This document shows positions 4,582-58,297 of a DNA stretch of 64,000 bases, one piece after another. The notes beneath the pieces are model-generated. The model did no database searches, had not been told where the DNA came from, and was given only the letters and a program-made list of their open reading frames with translations. Source of the DNA: Candidatus Scalinduaceae bacterium (GTDB lineage: Bacteria; Planctomycetota; Brocadiia; Brocadiales; Scalinduaceae); the NCBI GenBank assembly GCA_046759445.1, contig JBHICG010000005.1, forward strand, positions 1 to 64,000. The letters run 5' to 3'. The stretch's first letter is position 1. Each line of letters begins with the position of its first letter. The translations under genes and the position numbers were made by a program.

Positions 4582-4819
4582 AGTTTCTTATCTACAATTC
4601 GTTTTTTCCTGCAAAAAAATTCTTAACAAGTATTTCAATATTGGTCAATCTTAAAATTATGGATAGAGTGATGTTTTTAGAAACTTCTTTTAATTGATTG
4701 TTTTTGTTGGTTTAGTTATTGGATTTGAAATGAAATGTGAAAGTTTTTTTACAAAATGAACTCAAAAGAACATGTGATGATTTTGTTGTCAGATTGGGTA
4801 ACATTTTGGAGTACTTACT

Positions 4820-6286
4820 TTGTTATTGCATGAATTAAGTGCAAATAAAATTAAAGAAAAGGTAATTAAGCGGGAGATTACTGCGCAAGATGTAGTTGAA
4901 GAGCTTTTTGAATGGATAAACCTCAAAGAACCTTTAATTAAGGCTTATCTTTGTTTAGACAAAGATGGTGCTTTGTTAAAGGCAAAAGAGATTGATAAAA
5001 GGCTTGGTAATGGAGGGAAAGTTGGCTTGTTAGCAGGTATCCCTGTTGCTATAAAAGATAATATATGCGCAACAGGAATGAAAACAACTTGTGCATCGAA
5101 AATATTGAAAAACTTCATACCGCCTTATGACGCTTTTGTAGTTAAGAGGATTAAAGAGGAAGATGCCATAATAATTGGGAAGACTAATTTGGATGAATTT
5201 GCTATGGGTTCTTCAACAGAAAATTCGGCATTTTATATTACTCGGAATCCTTGGGACACCAATCGTATTCCTGGAGGATCAAGTGGCGGCTCGGCAGCGG
5301 TAGTGGCAGCAGATATGGCTTTTATGGCCTTAGGTTCAGATACTGGTGGTTCAGTACGACAACCAGCTTCTTTTTGTGGAAATGTTGGTTTTAGACCAAC
5401 ATACGGGAGGGTGTCTCGTTATGGATTAGTTGCTTTTGCTTCCTCTTTAGACCAGATTGGTCCTGTTACGAAAGACGTTCTTGATGCTGCATTATTGTTG
5501 CAAGTTATCTCTGGTCATGATAATTATGACTCGACGTGTGCCACATTAAAAGTTCCTGATTTTGTAACAGATATTAATCACTTGGATGAGGGGCTGAAAA
5601 TTGGAGTACCAAAGGAATTTTTCGGTAAAGGTTTAAACACAGAAATCAGGAATGCAATAGTGGATGCATTAAAAATATACGAAGGTAAGGGTGCAAAATT
5701 AGTTGATATATCTCTTCCGCATAGTGAATACGCAGTTGCTGCTTATTATATCATTGCAACTGCAGAAGCTAGCTCTAACTTGGCAAGATATGATGGCGTT
5801 CGGTATGGATATAGAAGTCAATTAAGTGACGATAATATAATTGACATGTATAGTAGAACACGTGCGGAAGGGTTTGGAAGTGAGGTAAAAAGACGTATTT
5901 TGTTAGGTAATTATGCACTAAGTACTGGTTATTATGAGGCGTATTATTTGAAAGCCTCAAAAGTCAGAAATCTAATTAGAGAAGATCTTGAAGATGCTTT
6001 TGAGAAAGTGGATTGCATAATTTGTCCTACAAGCCCAACACCGGCATTTAATATAGGTGAAAAGACAACAGATCCACTTCAAATGTATTTGACCGATATT
6101 TATACCACACCTTCTAGTCTTGCTGGAATTCCCGGTATCTCTATTCCTTGTGGTTTTACGAGTACTGGCTTACCCATTGGCATGCAAATTCTGGGTAATC
6201 ATTTTGACGAGGAGAAAATTTTAAAGGTGGCAAAATTATTCGAAAATGAAACAGATTTTCATTTAAAGAAACCTAAATTAAATTGA
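4820..6286 (+). CDS. gatA: Asp/Glu-tRNA amidotransferase subunit A
   Basis: Amidase signature GGSSGGSAA, GSDTGGSVRQPA, SSNLARYDGVRYG; TTG start. Confidence 0.97.
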   Translation: MLLHELSANKIKEKVIKREITAQDVVEELFEWINLKEPLIKAYLCLDKDGALLKAKEIDKRLGNGGKVGLLAGIPVAIKDNICATGMKTTCASKILKNFIPPYDAFVVKRIKEEDAIIIGKTNLDEFAMGSSTENSAFYITRNPWDTNRIPGGSSGGSAAVVAADMAFMALGSDTGGSVRQPASFCGNVGFRPTYGRVSRYGLVAFASSLDQIGPVTKDVLDAALLLQVISGHDNYDSTCATLKVPDFVTDINHLDEGLKIGVPKEFFGKGLNTEIRNAIVDALKIYEGKGAKLVDISLPHSEYAVAAYYIIATAEASSNLARYDGVRYGYRSQLSDDNIIDMYSRTRAEGFGSEVKRRILLGNYALSTGYYEAYYLKASKVRNLIREDLEDAFEKVDCIICPTSPTPAFNIGEKTTDPLQMYLTDIYTTPSSLAGIPGISIPCGFTSTGLPIGMQILGNHFDEEKILKVAKLFENETDFHLKKPKLN

Positions 6287-6298
6287 TAGGATTAGCTG

Positions 6299-7741
6299 GT
6301 GAAATATGAAGTTGTAATGGGATTGGAGACTCATGCAGAACTAGATACTGATTCTAAACTCTTTTGTGGGTGTAGTACTAAATTTGGTTCTGAACCTAAT
6401 ACTCAGACATGTCCTATATGTTTGGGTATGCCAGGAGTTTTACCAGTGATGAATAAAAAGGCGTTTGAATATTCATTAAAGGCTGCTCTTGCGTTGAATT
6501 GTGATATAAGTAAATTTACTAATTTTGATAGAAAGAGTTATTATTATCCTGATTTGCCTAAAAACTATCAAATTTCACAAAACTATTTTAATCTTGGTAA
6601 TAATGGTTATGTAGATATAATTGTTAAAGGAGAAAAAAAGAGACTCGGCATACATAACGTTCATTTAGAGGAGGAAGCTGGCAAGCTTATACATCCTGAA
6701 AAGTCTGATGCTGATTATAGCTTGGTTGACTTTAACAGGGCGGGTATACCTTTATTAGAAATAGTAACCGAACCTGACATGAGAAGTGTTGAAGAAGTAG
6801 AAAGTTATATGCAAACACTTAGAAACATATTACTTTATATAGGTGTGTCGGATTGTAAGATGCAGGAAGGTTCTTTAAGATTCGAAGCAAGCATATCTTT
6901 ACGTAGAAAAGGATATGATGTTTATGGTAATAGAGTAGAAATAAAGAATCTTAACTCTATGAAAGCTGTTTTGAAGGTACTTGCATATGAAATATCAAGG
7001 CAAAGTGACTTGCTTGATAAGGGCAAGGAAGTATTAATGGAGACGAGGTTGTGGGATGAGGTTGATGCTGTAAGTAGACGAATGCGTACAAAAGAAGAAG
7101 CCCATGACTATAGGTATTTTCCAGAACCTGATTTGGTTCCTGTATGGATTGATCAGAAATGGATTGACAAGGTTAAAGCAACTATTCCAGAACTTTCTGT
7201 CAACAAACGTCAAAGATTTGTAAATGAATATTCTATTTCTGATTATGATGCAGGTGTTCTAACGGAAGATAGATCTTTTGCAGATTATTTTGAGGAATGT
7301 GTAAAATTATCTCAGAATTCTCCAAAAGAGTTGAGTAACTGGATTATTAATGATGTACTTCGAGAACTAAATGAACGAAAAACAAATGTGCAGGATTTTG
7401 TTGTTTCACCAAAGATGCTGGTTGAATTAGTTAAGATCAAGCCAACTATTGGAAGTTCAATCGCTAAAGACGTCTTTGTTGAAATGATAAATACAGGAAA
7501 AACCGCTCCATCTATAGTTAAGGAGAAAAATTTAACACAGTTGGACGATGTAAGTGAACTTAATGATATTGTAACAAAAGTTATAGAAGAGAACCCTAAA
7601 GCGGCAGAAGATTACAGCCAGGGGAAAAAAGGTGCTTTGACCTTCTTGATTGGTCAAACTATGAAAATTACTAAAGGCAAAGCGAACCCCAAAATTTTAA
7701 CAGAGATTCTTAAGGAAAGATTATCTGCCGGCTCAAAGTAA
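6299..7741 (+). CDS. gatB: Asp/Glu-tRNA amidotransferase subunit B
   Basis: GLETHAEL, YPDLPKNYQISQ, DYRYFPEPDL. Confidence 0.97.
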   Translation: MKYEVVMGLETHAELDTDSKLFCGCSTKFGSEPNTQTCPICLGMPGVLPVMNKKAFEYSLKAALALNCDISKFTNFDRKSYYYPDLPKNYQISQNYFNLGNNGYVDIIVKGEKKRLGIHNVHLEEEAGKLIHPEKSDADYSLVDFNRAGIPLLEIVTEPDMRSVEEVESYMQTLRNILLYIGVSDCKMQEGSLRFEASISLRRKGYDVYGNRVEIKNLNSMKAVLKVLAYEISRQSDLLDKGKEVLMETRLWDEVDAVSRRMRTKEEAHDYRYFPEPDLVPVWIDQKWIDKVKATIPELSVNKRQRFVNEYSISDYDAGVLTEDRSFADYFEECVKLSQNSPKELSNWIINDVLRELNERKTNVQDFVVSPKMLVELVKIKPTIGSSIAKDVFVEMINTGKTAPSIVKEKNLTQLDDVSELNDIVTKVIEENPKAAEDYSQGKKGALTFLIGQTMKITKGKANPKILTEILKERLSAGSK

Positions 7742-7751
7742 ACCCTATATA

Positions 7752-7943
7752 CTATACGTCTTTTGCTTGAATGGTTTTTCTGTTATTGCCTTGTGCTCTA
7801 TTTATTGCTTTATCAATGGTATCATAAACTGAATTACTTAACTCACCAATGAATTCTCCTGATGTATTACAATTATTACTTTTTATATATTCTTTAATTT
7901 TGCTAGCAACAACAAGTATTTCTCTTTCCTTCTTTTTCGCCAT
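7752..7943 (-). CDS. Bacterial histone-fold protein (Bd0055/HBb-like), 63 aa
   Basis: ILVVASKIKEYIK...NTSGE...RAQGNNRKTIQAKDV; ATG at 7943 preceded by AAGGAG RBS (7951-7956). Confidence 0.85.
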   Translation of the reverse strand: MAKKKEREILVVASKIKEYIKSNNCNTSGEFIGELSNSVYDTIDKAINRAQGNNRKTIQAKDV

Positions 7944-8068
7944 TTCTTCCCTCCTTAGATATATGTTGATTTGCTGAATGTGTAAAATGTACAAGGTTTA
8001 TATCAAAAAAACTAAAGAAGTCAAGAGTTTTTCTTACAGAATATTGATAAAAAGATTGTTGTGATATT

Positions 8069-9199
8069 ATGGATATTCGGGACAAAATATTGTCTAAAGT
8101 TAACAAAATTGTGGTAAAGATTGGGACACGTGTGCTTACAAATGAAGATGGATTTTTAGATATAAATCAAATTATGGAGTTGTCAAGGCAGATTATTCGG
8201 CTTCGTTCTAAGGGTTATAGCGTAGTAGTTGTGAGTTCTGGTGCAGTTGGGGCTGGGATTAAGACTTTGGGTTGGGATAAAAGGCCTAATATTCTTCCAG
8301 TTCTGCAGGCAGCAGCAGCAGTTGGACAGGGGAAGTTAATAGAGATTTACAATGGATGTTTTAAAAAGCAGGGATACCATGCAGCACAATTACTGCTGAC
8401 AAGACAGGATTTTGAAGATCGGCAGAGATATTTAAATACATGTAACACATTACACTCACTGTTAAATCTTAAAACTGTTCCTATTATTAACGAGAATGAT
8501 ACTATATCGGTGGAGGAAATTGCATTTGGAGATAACGATATTTTATCTGCATTAGTTACAAACCTGTTACGAGCTGAATTATTGATACTTTTGTCTTCTA
8601 TAGATGGGTTATATAAAACACCTCCAACTTCTGGCAAACAGTCTAATATTTTGCCCACTGTGGATATAATTTCAGATGATATTAAAAAGCTTGCATTTAA
8701 AATAAAGACAAAGGAAGGTATTGGAGGTATGGAGAGTAAACTTGAAGCGGCTAGCATTGCTACTAGTTCGGGGGAAGCAGTAATAATTGCTAACGGAAGA
8801 CAATCGGATGTTTTATTAAAAATAATGGACTTTGATAATGTAGGTACATTGTTTATTCCTCACAAGAAGAAGGTTACCAGTCGTAAAAGATGGATAGGAT
8901 TTAGTGTGAGATCAAACGGAATAATTTACATAGATGATGGTGCATTGGTAGCTTTACAAAAGAAAGGTAAAAGTTTATTACCTTCTGGTGTTGTACGTGT
9001 TGATGGTAATTTTATCAAGGGAGACGTTGTTTCAGTAGTGAATGTTAATAGAAACAAAGAAATAGCAAAAGGGCTTGTAAATTATTCGGTAGAAGAAGTG
9101 CAAAAAATTAAAGGTCTTCGAACTTCGTTAATAAGAAAAACTCTGGGTTCTAAACCTTATGATGAGATAATACATCGAGATAATCTGTTTTTGTTGTAA
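8069..9199 (+). CDS. proB: Glutamate 5-kinase with PUA domain
   Basis: VVKIGT, VSSGAV, PIINENDT, FGDNDILSA, GKSLLPSG. Confidence 0.96.
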   Translation: MDIRDKILSKVNKIVVKIGTRVLTNEDGFLDINQIMELSRQIIRLRSKGYSVVVVSSGAVGAGIKTLGWDKRPNILPVLQAAAAVGQGKLIEIYNGCFKKQGYHAAQLLLTRQDFEDRQRYLNTCNTLHSLLNLKTVPIINENDTISVEEIAFGDNDILSALVTNLLRAELLILLSSIDGLYKTPPTSGKQSNILPTVDIISDDIKKLAFKIKTKEGIGGMESKLEAASIATSSGEAVIIANGRQSDVLLKIMDFDNVGTLFIPHKKKVTSRKRWIGFSVRSNGIIYIDDGALVALQKKGKSLLPSGVVRVDGNFIKGDVVSVVNVNRNKEIAKGLVNYSVEEVQKIKGLRTSLIRKTLGSKPYDEIIHRDNLFLL

Positions 9200-9200
9200 C

Positions 9201-10145
9201 TTATTTAGTTTCTTTAATATATGTTGTTGTATTCCTTAGTTCCTTGTTCATTTCAATAATTGCTTCTTCTACTGCGCATTCCCAACGTTTGATTCCAAAT
9301 TTTCTCTTCCATGGAGAACGGTTGTAGGCATATATTATTCCTCTGGAAGAATTTACTATTGCGCCATGGCCATCATGATTAAAACACCTTGCAATATCTT
9401 TTAAACGGCCCTCTTGTGCGCCATAACCTGGAACAAGGAAGTATGATTTTGGCATAATATTTCTGAGATTACTAACAATATTTGAATTTGTTGATGCTAC
9501 TACGGCACCAATAGAACTATAACCTTTTTCCCCAATTTGGTCTTTTCCCCATTGATTTATTTGATTTGCAACTATTTGGTATATTGTTTTGTTTTTACAT
9601 TTTAAATCCTGGATTTCTTTGGATGAAGGATTAGAAGTTTTTACCAAAATGAATACACCCTTACCATATTTTTTGGCTAATTTAATGAAAGGCAGTACAC
9701 TGTCAGACCCCATATAGGGATTAACAGTAACGGCATCTACTTCAAAGGAGCCTTCATCAGGTTTATTGGTTCCAAGATGCGCAATAGCATAAGCCATTGA
9801 CGTATGAGGAACATCTCCTCTTTTAACATCTCCAATAACTATCAACCCTTTTTTTTTAGCGTATTTTATTGTATCAGAATATGCCTTAATACCCCAAATT
9901 CCGAGTAATTCATAAAATGCAATTTGAATTTTAACAATTCCTATATGTGGTTGGATTATATTGATTATTTGCTTATTAAAATCAATTATTGCTTTGGCAG
10001 ATTTTTTTGCCTCACTTCCTTTTTTTTTAAAAGCCGCTTTTTTAATTTGATCAGGGACATATTCTAATTGTGGGTCGAGTCCAACAACCACACAACTGTC
10101 TTTTTTTTCAATCATCTTTGTTAGTAGATCTATAAATCTTTTCAT
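9201..10145 (-). CDS. pyrF: Orotidine-5'-phosphate decarboxylase (type 2)
   Basis: VGLDP, DVKRGD, VTVNPYMG, LVKTSNP, LVPGYGAQ, VNSSRGI. Confidence 0.94.
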   Translation of the reverse strand: MKRFIDLLTKMIEKKDSCVVVGLDPQLEYVPDQIKKAAFKKKGSEAKKSAKAIIDFNKQIINIIQPHIGIVKIQIAFYELLGIWGIKAYSDTIKYAKKKGLIVIGDVKRGDVPHTSMAYAIAHLGTNKPDEGSFEVDAVTVNPYMGSDSVLPFIKLAKKYGKGVFILVKTSNPSSKEIQDLKCKNKTIYQIVANQINQWGKDQIGEKGYSSIGAVVASTNSNIVSNLRNIMPKSYFLVPGYGAQEGRLKDIARCFNHDGHGAIVNSSRGIIYAYNRSPWKRKFGIKRWECAVEEAIIEMNKELRNTTTYIKETK

Positions 10146-28102: not shown

Positions 28103-28582
28103 GTGAACATTACTGAGGTTAGAGTAAAGCTAACAGAGGCAAAGAAGAACCGTTTACACGCATTTTGTAGTATTACTATAGATAATGATTTTGTTGTAAG
28201 AGATTTGAAGATTATTGAAGGGTATAAAGGGGCTTTTGTTGCTATGCCAAGCAGAAAACTTACCGATAAGTGCCCAAAATGTGGTTGTAAAAACCACCTC
28301 AATGCACAATTTTGTAATGATTGTGGTACTAAACTTGATGAAAAACGTGCAATGGTGGAATCCAAAGGGAAATTTAAATTATATGCTGATACGGCCCATC
28401 CCATAAACTCAAAATGCCGTGATGAGATAGAAAAAAGGGTGCTTACAGCATATGAAGAAGAAGTTGTTAAGTCCAAACAACCAGGATATAAACATCCTGA
28501 TTTGGATGAACACGACATTAATGATTACGAAGTAAAAGATGATGGAGTTGGAAAAAGCCAATTTGGAGAAGAACATTCCTAA
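28103..28582 (+). CDS. spoVG: SpoVG family protein with Zn-ribbon insertion
   Basis: [22 protein letters not shown]; inserted CPKC...CNDC. Confidence 0.9.
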
Positions 28583-57745: not shown

Positions 57746-58297
57746 ATGGCTAATACTCGAAAAGATGTACAAAAGAGACATCAGCCTTTTCATTTATATG
57801 TGGATAAACAAATATACTTTTTCTCTGTACATACCTATCAAAACGTTCCTATTTTAAAGAGTGTAAAACGTAAAAGTGCATTTGAGCAAAAGTTAAAAGA
57901 TAAAATGGTTGAAAAGCAGTGCAATATTATTGCCTGGGTGATTCTTGATAATCATTACCATTTCATGATGAAGACTGATAAAGGAAAAGACATCCGGGAT
58001 ATTTTCAAAGCTATTCATGGTACAACATCATTTCAATGGAATAAAGAGGATGGCAAGAAAGGCAGGAAGATATGGCAAAGTTATTGGGATTATTGTATCC
58101 GTAGTGAAAGCGATTATTGGACGCGTTTTAATTATATCCATCATAATCCTGTAAAGCATTGTTATGTTAAAAGGATGGAAGATTATGGATTTTCCAGCTT
58201 TAATTTCTATGTGAAGACAAAAGGATATGAATGGTTGATGTCTGTATTTGAAAAATATCCTGTTGTTGATTATATCATGGAAGGTGATGATAGATAG
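57746..58297 (+). CDS. REP-associated tyrosine transposase (RAYT, IS200/Y1 family)
   Basis: YFFSVHT, AWVILDNHYH (HUH), IWQ.SYWDYCIR, NYIHHNPVKH, FSSF. Confidence 0.9.
   Translation: MANTRKDVQKRHQPFHLYVDKQIYFFSVHTYQNVPILKSVKRKSAFEQKLKDKMVEKQCNIIAWVILDNHYHFMMKTDKGKDIRDIFKAIHGTTSFQWNKEDGKKGRKIWQSYWDYCIRSESDYWTRFNYIHHNPVKHCYVKRMEDYGFSSFNFYVKTKGYEWLMSVFEKYPVVDYIMEGDDR

Follow-up and report, generated by a model that had tools for sequence, protein, structure and literature searches.

Bacterial histones form a young field, and in-depth studies exist, to our knowledge, for only two of them, HBb and HLp. The alpha3-truncated histones have been split into a face-to-face (FtF) group and several smaller groups, and the defining feature of the FtF histones is a torus-shaped tetramer that a conserved arginine and asparagine at the end of helix alpha2 (R48 and N52 in the HMM logo) hold together, whereas the 'bacterial dimers', typified by HBb, are the histones without this arginine and asparagine (Schwab et al. 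2024, PMC11390915). Both FtF and bacterial dimer histones occur in Planctomycetota according to the same survey, and FtF histones are also placed in this phylum by Hu et al. 2025 (PMC12701072). The latter study described HLp as a stable tetramer wrapping about 60 bp of DNA, and it reported R49, N53 and R55 as conserved residues of the tetrameric FtF histones of bacteria (Hu et al. 2025, PMC12701072). In HLp, the two dimers meet through R49, S52 and N53 on one side and F63, T61 and R55 on the other, R55 and D62 form the RD clamp, the residues touching DNA are A13, S14, K15, K17, K21, T27, G29, T56 and T57, and the crystals do not show the first 6-7 residues (Hu et al. 2025, PMC12701072). Because the protein described here aligns with HLp residue for residue, its numbering is the same as native HLp numbering.

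The gene analyzed here lies in the window, that is, in the whole 64-kb stretch of DNA under study. A first-pass annotation had described a basic ORF of 63 aa with a strong AAGGAG ribosome-binding site, situated between gatB and proB, and exactly this sequence was recovered on the minus strand, with AAGGAGG placed 6 nt upstream of the start codon. The ORF begins with ATG at 7943 and ends with a stop codon at 7754..7752, and the computed protein is basic (pI 9.42, net charge +3.5, 7.07 kDa). The features of the locus are as follows.

7752..7943, minus strand: histone coding sequence including the stop codon, 63 aa, predicted to be alpha3-truncated (sequence, translation, phmmer against PDB sequences, dN/dS and fold).
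7917..7943, minus strand: residues 1-9, short Lys-rich N-terminal tail, probably disordered (pLDDT and tails of relatives).
7878..7907, minus strand: residues 13-22, predicted helix alpha1, in which A13, S14, K15, K17 and K21 match HLp DNA-contact residues (AF2 helix and alignment).
7788..7859, minus strand: residues 29-52, predicted helix alpha2, which would form the dimer handshake, with its C-terminal end (R49, G52) at the predicted dimer-dimer contact (AF2, contacts of 48-49 and 52-53 with a third copy in the four-copy model, and R49/S52/N53 of HLp).
7755..7787, minus strand: residues 53-63, with N53, loop 2 (R55-K56-T57), the RD clamp partner D62 and a predicted 3-residue alpha3 (60-62) (AF2 and conservation among relatives).
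7950..7956, minus strand: Shine-Dalgarno sequence AAGGAGG, 6 nt 5' of the ATG (sequence, kept in related loci).
7997..8024, minus strand: putative promoter, TTGACT (8024..8019), 16-nt spacer, TGn (8005..8003) and TATAAA (8002..7997) (read by eye).

The start codon needed attention, as the frame in the mechanical ORF list begins further upstream, with a TTG at 7994, and yields a form of 80 aa. The first-pass annotation had already regarded this form as overextended, and the related loci agree with the shorter one. An ATG is found at the equivalent position in all 10 related loci, where it is preceded by AAGGAG in nine and by GAGGAG in one, and in two of them (L003 and L004) an in-frame TAA stands immediately 5' of the ATG. 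Judged from these alignments, the gene truly starts with the ATG at 7943, and because of the conserved ATG and ribosome site together with the TAA in L003 and L004, the 80-aa form in the window and the forms of 86-91 residues given by gene callers for many relatives are taken as over-extensions. The upstream stretch that these over-long forms cross looks like a promoter, as suggested by its conservation: all 11 of the upstream regions aligned carry CTTGACTTCT unchanged, and the -10 element reads TGn-TATAAA in the window and TGG-TAYTAT in the relatives. A consensus scan of 7500..8300, which demands T at position 6 of the second hexamer, made no call at the candidate promoter, so that the assignment rests on reading by eye and on conservation; the one promoter-like site that it reported in this range is on the plus strand inside gatB, and shuffled sequences give 2.6 +/- 1.8 such sites. 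No terminator was found by the scan of the same range, and folding of the 126 nt after the stop codon gave no convincing terminator either (z = -1.34, matched by 18 of 200 shuffles).

Both neighbors of the gene were recognized by Pfam, in agreement with the placement originally given. The left one at 6299..7741 on the plus strand is GatB (GatB_N 9.1e-114, GatB_Yqey 5.1e-44), and the right one at 8069..9199, also on the plus strand, carries AA_kinase and PUA domains, which is the architecture of the glutamate 5-kinase ProB; GatA lies further to the left and a gene of the OMP-decarboxylase family further to the right (Pfam). To examine the locus in other genomes, a single-sequence query was run against a species-representative genome collection, and it returned 11 loci from 212 candidate stretches, covering close relatives only. 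Ten of these 11 loci encode a protein that is 81-89% identical over the matched part, and they are labeled Ca. Scalindua sp. (seven), Ca. Brocadiaceae bacterium, Planctomycetota bacterium and Thermodesulfobacteriota (one each). The gatB-histone-proB order and orientation is kept in 10 of 10 related loci, and the wider neighborhood of fur, rpmB, gatC, gatA ... trpG and nusA is kept as well wherever their contigs reach. Since these 10 loci are close relatives with general synteny, the adjacency to gatB and proB carries no functional signal.

The identity of the host is consistent with this picture. The neighboring proteins are about 75-88% identical to those on contigs labeled Ca. Scalindua, a genus placed in Planctomycetota, Ca. 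Brocadiales, Ca. Scalinduaceae, and because of this resemblance, together with the seven Ca. Scalindua labels among the 10 close loci, the suggestion of a probable anammox planctomycete is reasonable. No anammox-specific enzyme was found by Pfam among the 35 large ORFs of the window, which carry housekeeping and redox genes. Anammox bacteria are ecologically important, grow very slowly and have an unusual compartmentalised cell plan, and condensed nucleoids are attributed to this group of planctomycetes.

With only 63 codons and no Pfam or NCBIfam model above its cut-off, the ORF could in principle be a spurious reading frame in the spacer between gatB and proB. Its conservation pattern excludes this. 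The 55-codon core of the gene has a median dN/dS of 0.078 (55 pairs), similar to the values of gatB (0.084) and proB (0.090), which come from 36 pairs each, and the histone gene is thus under purifying selection. At E<=1e-3, 90 relatives were found in a set of 5.8 billion proteins and 390 among cluster representatives, the start codon and ribosome site are conserved as described above, and the fold prediction is confident. For 10 of the more distant relatives, a cluster look-up gave no label more specific than 'Planctomycetota bacterium'. The first-pass annotation had let its proposal depend on the ORF being conserved, and dN/dS, the many relatives and the synteny in 10 of 10 loci agree on this point. 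The median dS of the gene is 0.53, about half of the value of about 1.0 for its neighbors, as measured over only 55 codons; codon constraint from high expression would fit such a low value, 55 codons being a small sample.

The histone assignment stands on three lines of evidence, namely matches to PDB sequences, the AF2 fold and the Foldseek ranks. First, phmmer against PDB sequences gave as its best match 9qt0 (E 5.4e-11, 45.3 bits), gapless over residues 1-62, followed by 8cmp and 8fvx (E about 7e-7, 32.4 and 32.3 bits) and by 9f2c (E 3.9e-6, 30.1 bits). Among the entries named by the fold search, 9qt0 and 9qt1 are HLp of Leptospira perolatii, 8cmp, 8fvx, 9ezz and 9f0e are HBb (Bd0055) of Bdellovibrio bacteriovorus, and 9f2c is HTkC of Thermococcus kodakarensis. 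Second, an AF2 model built on our own alignment of 134 singlet relatives, which also served for the four-copy model below, has a mean pLDDT of 88.6 and predicted helices at residues 13-22, 29-52 and 60-62. Third, in the Foldseek search against the PDB, ranks 1-9 were all chains of HLp, HBb or HTkC (TM 0.81-0.88), the top match being HLp (TM 0.85/0.95, rmsd 0.7 A, 41% identity), and the eukaryotic H4-type folds and HMfB came next only at E>0.1 (1a7w, E 0.37, TM 0.59). The comparison with the structures of Bd0055 and HMfB that had been proposed in the first-pass annotation thus returned a histone fold that is close to HBb (TM 0.85) and only weakly similar to HMfB.

The predicted protein has the features by which alpha3-truncated prokaryotic histones are recognized. 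It is modeled as alpha1, loop 1, a long alpha2, loop 2 and alpha3, and where alpha3 of this family has 3-4 residues, it has a predicted helix of three (60-62) and ends at residue 63. The loop-2 RxTxxxxD motif with the RD clamp is represented by R55, T57 and D62, and in the 134 relatives D62 is invariant and R49, N53, R55 and T57 are each present in at least 90%. The RKT...D clamp read by the first-pass annotation (R55-K56-T57...D62) and its histone fold with a truncated alpha3 are therefore retained, and by its predicted fold the ORF encodes an alpha3-truncated histone. Searches with the profile of the same alignment gave 3185 matches at E<=1e-8, and the 120 matches listed are mostly doublets of 115-137 residues; no second histone gene was found within the 64-kb window when this HMM was run against all six-frame ORFs of at least 40 aa.

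The curated profiles contributed little: apart from a chance WcaE match, Pfam reached no more than 15.8 bits (CENP-S, cut-off 28) and NCBIfam 15.4 bits (archaea_histone, cut-off 50), and these sub-threshold results neither confirm nor refute the histone family. Two other classes were considered and rejected. An archaeal nucleosomal histone of the HMfB type does not agree with the truncated alpha3, with the restriction of the archaea_histone match (15.4 against 50) to residues 44-63, or with the lack of any CBFD_NFYB_HMF match at E<=1. A DUF1931 pseudodimeric histone has two folds per chain (138 positions in PF09123) and no DNA-binding residues, whereas the protein here is a 63-residue singlet that has no PF09123 match at E<=1 and keeps the DNA-contact residues. 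The DUF1931 label itself is found on the Scalindua rubra ortholog in UniRef and on HLp in its PDB file, and it looks like a naming carry-over.

The first-pass annotation had called the protein Bd0055/HBb-like, and it is at this level that our assignment differs. The hallmark motifs on which the label was built are indeed shared with HBb, since LVVxSK, NTS and RKT...D are all present, but the assignment to the HBb type is not upheld, because R49 and N53 are present as well. All of R49, N53, R55 and D62, which make up the FtF signature and the RD clamp, are found in the window protein in alignment with HLp, and in the phmmer alignment HBb has S and D where the window protein has R49 and N53. R49 and N53 occur together in 127 of the 134 singlet relatives, which corresponds to the arginine and asparagine by which FtF histones are defined.

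The main competing explanation is that the protein forms a dimer of the HBb/Bd0055 type, which bends DNA locally like HU or IHF and does not wrap it. The protein is significantly similar to HBb (E 7e-7, about 40% identity), the monomer TM by query length is 0.85 for HBb and HLp alike, the RKT motif has K56 like HBb while HLp has T56, and three of the six HLp tetramer-contact residues differ in the window protein (S52->G, T61->K, F63->V). On the other hand, the score to HBb is 32.4 bits compared with 45.3 bits to HLp, and the two residues that are absent by definition from bacterial dimers (Schwab et al. 2024, PMC11390915) are present. A quick maximum-likelihood tree (98 rows, 69 columns), which is poorly resolved with 59 of 95 inner branches open, places the window protein in a Scalindua-type clade of nine rows (SH-aLRT 99) that is separate from the HBb-like clade (SH-aLRT 98). 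The HBb-like clade is anchored by a protein with 56.3 bits to HBb (P0230), and all four of its rows are without R49, N53 or both. The tree goes no further than to put the clade of the window protein outside this HBb-like clade, and it does not group it with the HLp-like clade (anchor P0152, 84.5 bits to HLp).

The four-copy model bears directly on the same choice. It reached a score of 0.87 (0.86, 0.87 and 0.88 in single runs), with the best of three controls at 0.00, which is to be read against a tool mark reached by 20 of 30 proteins solved as one-chain pairs and by 1 of 23 single chains, a calibration made on two copies and not on four. Contacts agreed by at least 96% between the runs, with a partner pLDDT of at least 87. 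In the model, the scored copy meets one copy along the whole handshake-dimer surface and touches another through residues 48-49, 52-53, 55 and 61-62 with an expected error below 8 A, which is the HLp tetramer interface and closes the predicted ring. The protein is thus confidently predicted as the torus-like homotetramer that belongs to the FtF definition, with 48-49/52-53/55/61-62 as its second interface. Because the HLp and HTkC tetramers are already solved, this pass may reflect likeness to them and not independent evidence. Taken in this way, the model supports a tetramer for the window histone and, with the higher score to HLp, R49/N53 and the separate clade, argues against the Bd0055/HBb-like label; a bending dimer is unlikely.

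We therefore favor an FtF-type tetramer that would bind DNA without sequence preference, wrapping and compacting it, and we give this reading a probability of roughly 0.7. For the window protein itself, the results cover the gene and the selection on it, the matching residues, and a fold and a tetramer that are predicted, and DNA binding, wrapping and the nucleoid role are carried over from HLp. According to this proposal, two chains would form the usual histone handshake dimer, and two dimers would close into a ring tetramer through the C-terminal end of alpha2, loop 2 and the alpha3 stub (the region of R49, N53, R55 and D62). The outer rim of the ring would then consist of A13-S14-K15, K17, K21, T27, G29 and K56-T57, which may bind the DNA backbone without preference for sequence. 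Each tetramer could wrap about 60 bp, or two duplexes could be bridged, and the chromosome would be compacted in this way. The own near-consensus candidate promoter and the strong ribosome site of the gene would fit an abundant nucleoid protein.

The residues of the proposed rim also help to weigh another possibility, that the protein has a histone fold without organizing DNA globally and serves as a protein-protein adaptor or as a local regulator of the divergent proB. Not all prokaryotic histone-fold proteins need organize genomes (Schwab et al. 2024, PMC11390915), and each of the 10 loci has the gene paired divergently with proB. However, eight of the nine HLp DNA-contact residues are identical in the window protein (A13, S14, K15, K17, K21, T27, G29 and T57) and the ninth, T56 in HLp, is the basic K56 as in HBb, and the whole protein is basic at pI 9.42. 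The pairing with proB is uninformative, with fur-rpmB-gatCAB...nusA all syntenic in the close relatives, and in Leptospira, hlp is described beside smc, map and a DUF350 gene and not beside proB (Hu et al. 2025, PMC12701072). A role as adaptor or local regulator therefore seems to us highly improbable, and the DNA-wrapping tetramer remains the preferred reading.

The N-terminus was also considered. The first-pass annotation had proposed that its short Lys-rich extension could act as a small tail, and the predictions point in the same direction, with pLDDT below 50 at residues 1-3 and a mean of 63 over residues 1-10. Such tails are common in the family: at least three K/R precede the fold in 90 of the 134 relatives, and 65 of 134 start with MAKK. 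The tail in the window is 3-4 residues shorter than in the 10 closest relatives, nine of which have 66 residues and one (L009) 67. The Lys-rich N-terminus is thus probably a flexible tail, and it may plausibly make additional contact with DNA.

The window gene is not new as such, as its ortholog was catalogued in Hocher et al. 2023 and the family has been characterized structurally and biochemically. Files 5 and 7 of that supplement list two singlets for Ca. Scalindua japonica, GAX62348.1, the evident ortholog, and the HBb-like GAX59425.1, and further HBb-like entries are given for Ca. Scalindua brodae (KHE93402.1), Ca. Brocadia sinica (GAN32657.1) and Ca. Kuenenia stuttgartiensis, while the R...N type also appears in one 'Ca. 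Brocadiaceae bacterium' entry (Hocher et al. 2023 supplement). HBb-type histones thus do exist in anammox bacteria, which would speak for a bending dimer, but Ca. Scalindua japonica has a distinct HBb-like gene besides the ortholog of the window gene, and the two anammox histones are for this reason regarded as paralogous types. The HBb type is shared with Brocadia and Kuenenia, and the FtF type is found, among the anammox entries seen in the Hocher supplement, only in Scalindua japonica and one Brocadiaceae genome. No discussion of anammox histones was found among the papers listed by full-text literature searches, and the cluster map and lists of Hu et al. 2025 may already assign the Scalindua proteins to the FtF group. 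The main text of Schwab et al. 2024 (PMC11390915) contains neither 'anammox' nor 'Brocadi', and Scalindua, Brocadia, Kuenenia and Planctomycetota are absent from the text of one of its supplement files.

The gain from this work is accordingly modest, since the family, its structure and its occurrence in Planctomycetota are known from the literature and a supplementary table already includes the ortholog from Scalindua japonica. The assignment is useful in two respects. First, it matters for experiments, since those that make sense for a tetrameric wrapping type are different from those for a dimeric bending type. Second, it raises the possibility that one bacterium has two types of histone. 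As a doubtful extension, one may imagine a two-histone chromatin in the Scalindua lineage, in which an HBb-type dimer would bend and an FtF tetramer would wrap DNA, both acting jointly as the main nucleoid architects, and in which the Lys-rich tail would provide further contacts with DNA, or a regulatory site, that HLp does not have.

Compared with the known systems, the window protein can be placed as follows. HMfB-type histones share the histone fold and the loop-2 RxT...D clamp, but their alpha3 is full-length and their alpha2 longer, and their fold match to the window protein is weak. HTkC, the archaeal FtF histone (9F2C; Schwab et al. 2024), is closer (TM 0.83/0.90) and belongs to the torus-tetramer family with the same R/N positions, although it is archaeal, scores 30.1 bits and has no Lys-rich tail in the aligned part. 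HBb/Bd0055 (8CMP, 8FVX, 9EZZ) has the same alpha3-truncated fold (TM 0.85), with LVVxSK in alpha1, NTS in loop 1 and RKT...D in loop 2 in common, and differs as a dimer bending DNA, with S and D at the places of R49 and N53, 32.4 bits and a separate clade.

HLp of Leptospira perolatii (9QT0, 9QT1, 9QT2) is the best match in both sequence and fold, having 63 native residues against 63 in the window protein and a truncated alpha3. R49, N53, R55 and the R55-D62 clamp are shared, as are eight of nine DNA contacts, and the same interface is used in the predicted tetramer. The two proteins nevertheless differ in about 59% of their residues, including S52, T61, F63 and T56 of HLp, which are G, K, V and K in the window protein, and the window tail is Lys-rich (four K/R in residues 1-9) whereas that of HLp is not. 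They also differ in setting, HLp being from Spirochaetota with smc, map and DUF350 neighbors and the window gene from Planctomycetota with gatB and proB. The catalogued ortholog, GAX62348.1 of Ca. Scalindua japonica (66 aa, the length also found in nine of the 10 related loci), has a tail three residues longer than that of the window protein, and it shares with it 47 of 55 core residues as counted by eye, the RxxxNxRKT...D end and the MAKK start.

The histone gene and gatB are convergent, and their stop codons lie merely 10 nt apart:

window 7742-7751: gap between the stop codons of the histone gene and gatB, 10 nt

Neither a terminator scan of 7500-8300 nor folding of the 126 nt after the histone stop codon detected a terminator-like hairpin, and together with the short convergent gap, this points to a histone transcript that probably terminates within sequence antisense to the 3' end of gatB.

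When the loci from the scan of the species-representative genome collection were compared with the window, several differences in the surrounding genes were found. First, the proB-trpG spacer contains an additional gene in the window and in two other loci only, among the loci whose spacer was compared:

window 9201-10145, minus strand: OMP-decarboxylase-family gene, between proB and trpG
L005:1573-3585: OMP-decarboxylase-family gene, proB-trpG spacer
L009:2757-3706: OMP-decarboxylase-family gene, proB-trpG spacer

In six of the eight other loci, the spacer is without this gene; of the remaining two, L006 stops short of the spacer and L003 is outside the count. The two loci carrying the gene also have the gatB closest to that of the window (88% in L005 and 86% in L009). 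The L005 match is broken into three, suggestive of either a frameshift or a partial duplicate. Second, in the Scalindua locus L003 (L003:7861-9599), the genes adjoining gatB are only 51% and 37% identical to the gatA and gatC of the window, respectively, and lie approximately 1.2 kb more distant than in the other loci, which suggests that the amidase pair was replaced or is paralogous. Third, L001 (contig CAXMPV010000028.1) is labelled 'uncultured Thermodesulfobacteriota bacterium'. Its nusA, trpG, proB, histone gene and gatB are 77-86% identical to those of the window at the protein level, and its gene order matches that of the Scalindua contigs. Mis-binning of a Scalindua-type contig, not transfer, is the probable explanation.

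Two further genes in the window were assigned by profile matches:

window 28103-28582, plus strand: SpoVG-family protein, 159 residues, Pfam match
window 57746-58297, plus strand: IS200-like Y1 transposase, weak match (30.2 bits; cut-off 23)

The 82-position SpoVG profile is stretched over residues 1-119 of the 159, and the protein thus has an insertion and a C-terminal extension. Two ABC transporter genes adjoin the transposase match.

The sole distant locus among the 11 encodes two histone folds in a single reading frame, with two tblastn matches (4815-4973 and 5001-5162) and a CBFD_NFYB_HMF score of 25.1 bits, which exceeds the cut-off (21.4):

L011 4731-5162, plus strand: histone doublet, ~119 residues, MAG labelled Candidatus Peribacteria

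Doublets of 114-137 residues were also near the top of the matches listed in both large searches. Among the matches listed, they were the top-scoring relatives in the profile search, and in the single-sequence search they came first once the Scalindua clade is set aside; the high scores are due in part to two stretches being matched. Where a source is named, it is a candidate-phylum bacterium or a DPANN archaeon (e.g. of the Woesearchaeota or Nanoarchaeota).

Only one histone type is present in the 64-kb window. According to the entries in supplement files 5 and 7 of Hocher et al. 2023, Ca. Scalindua japonica has two differing singlet histones, one of which is the ortholog of the window histone gene, and the other is HBb-like, with counterparts in S. 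brodae, Brocadia sinica and Kuenenia.
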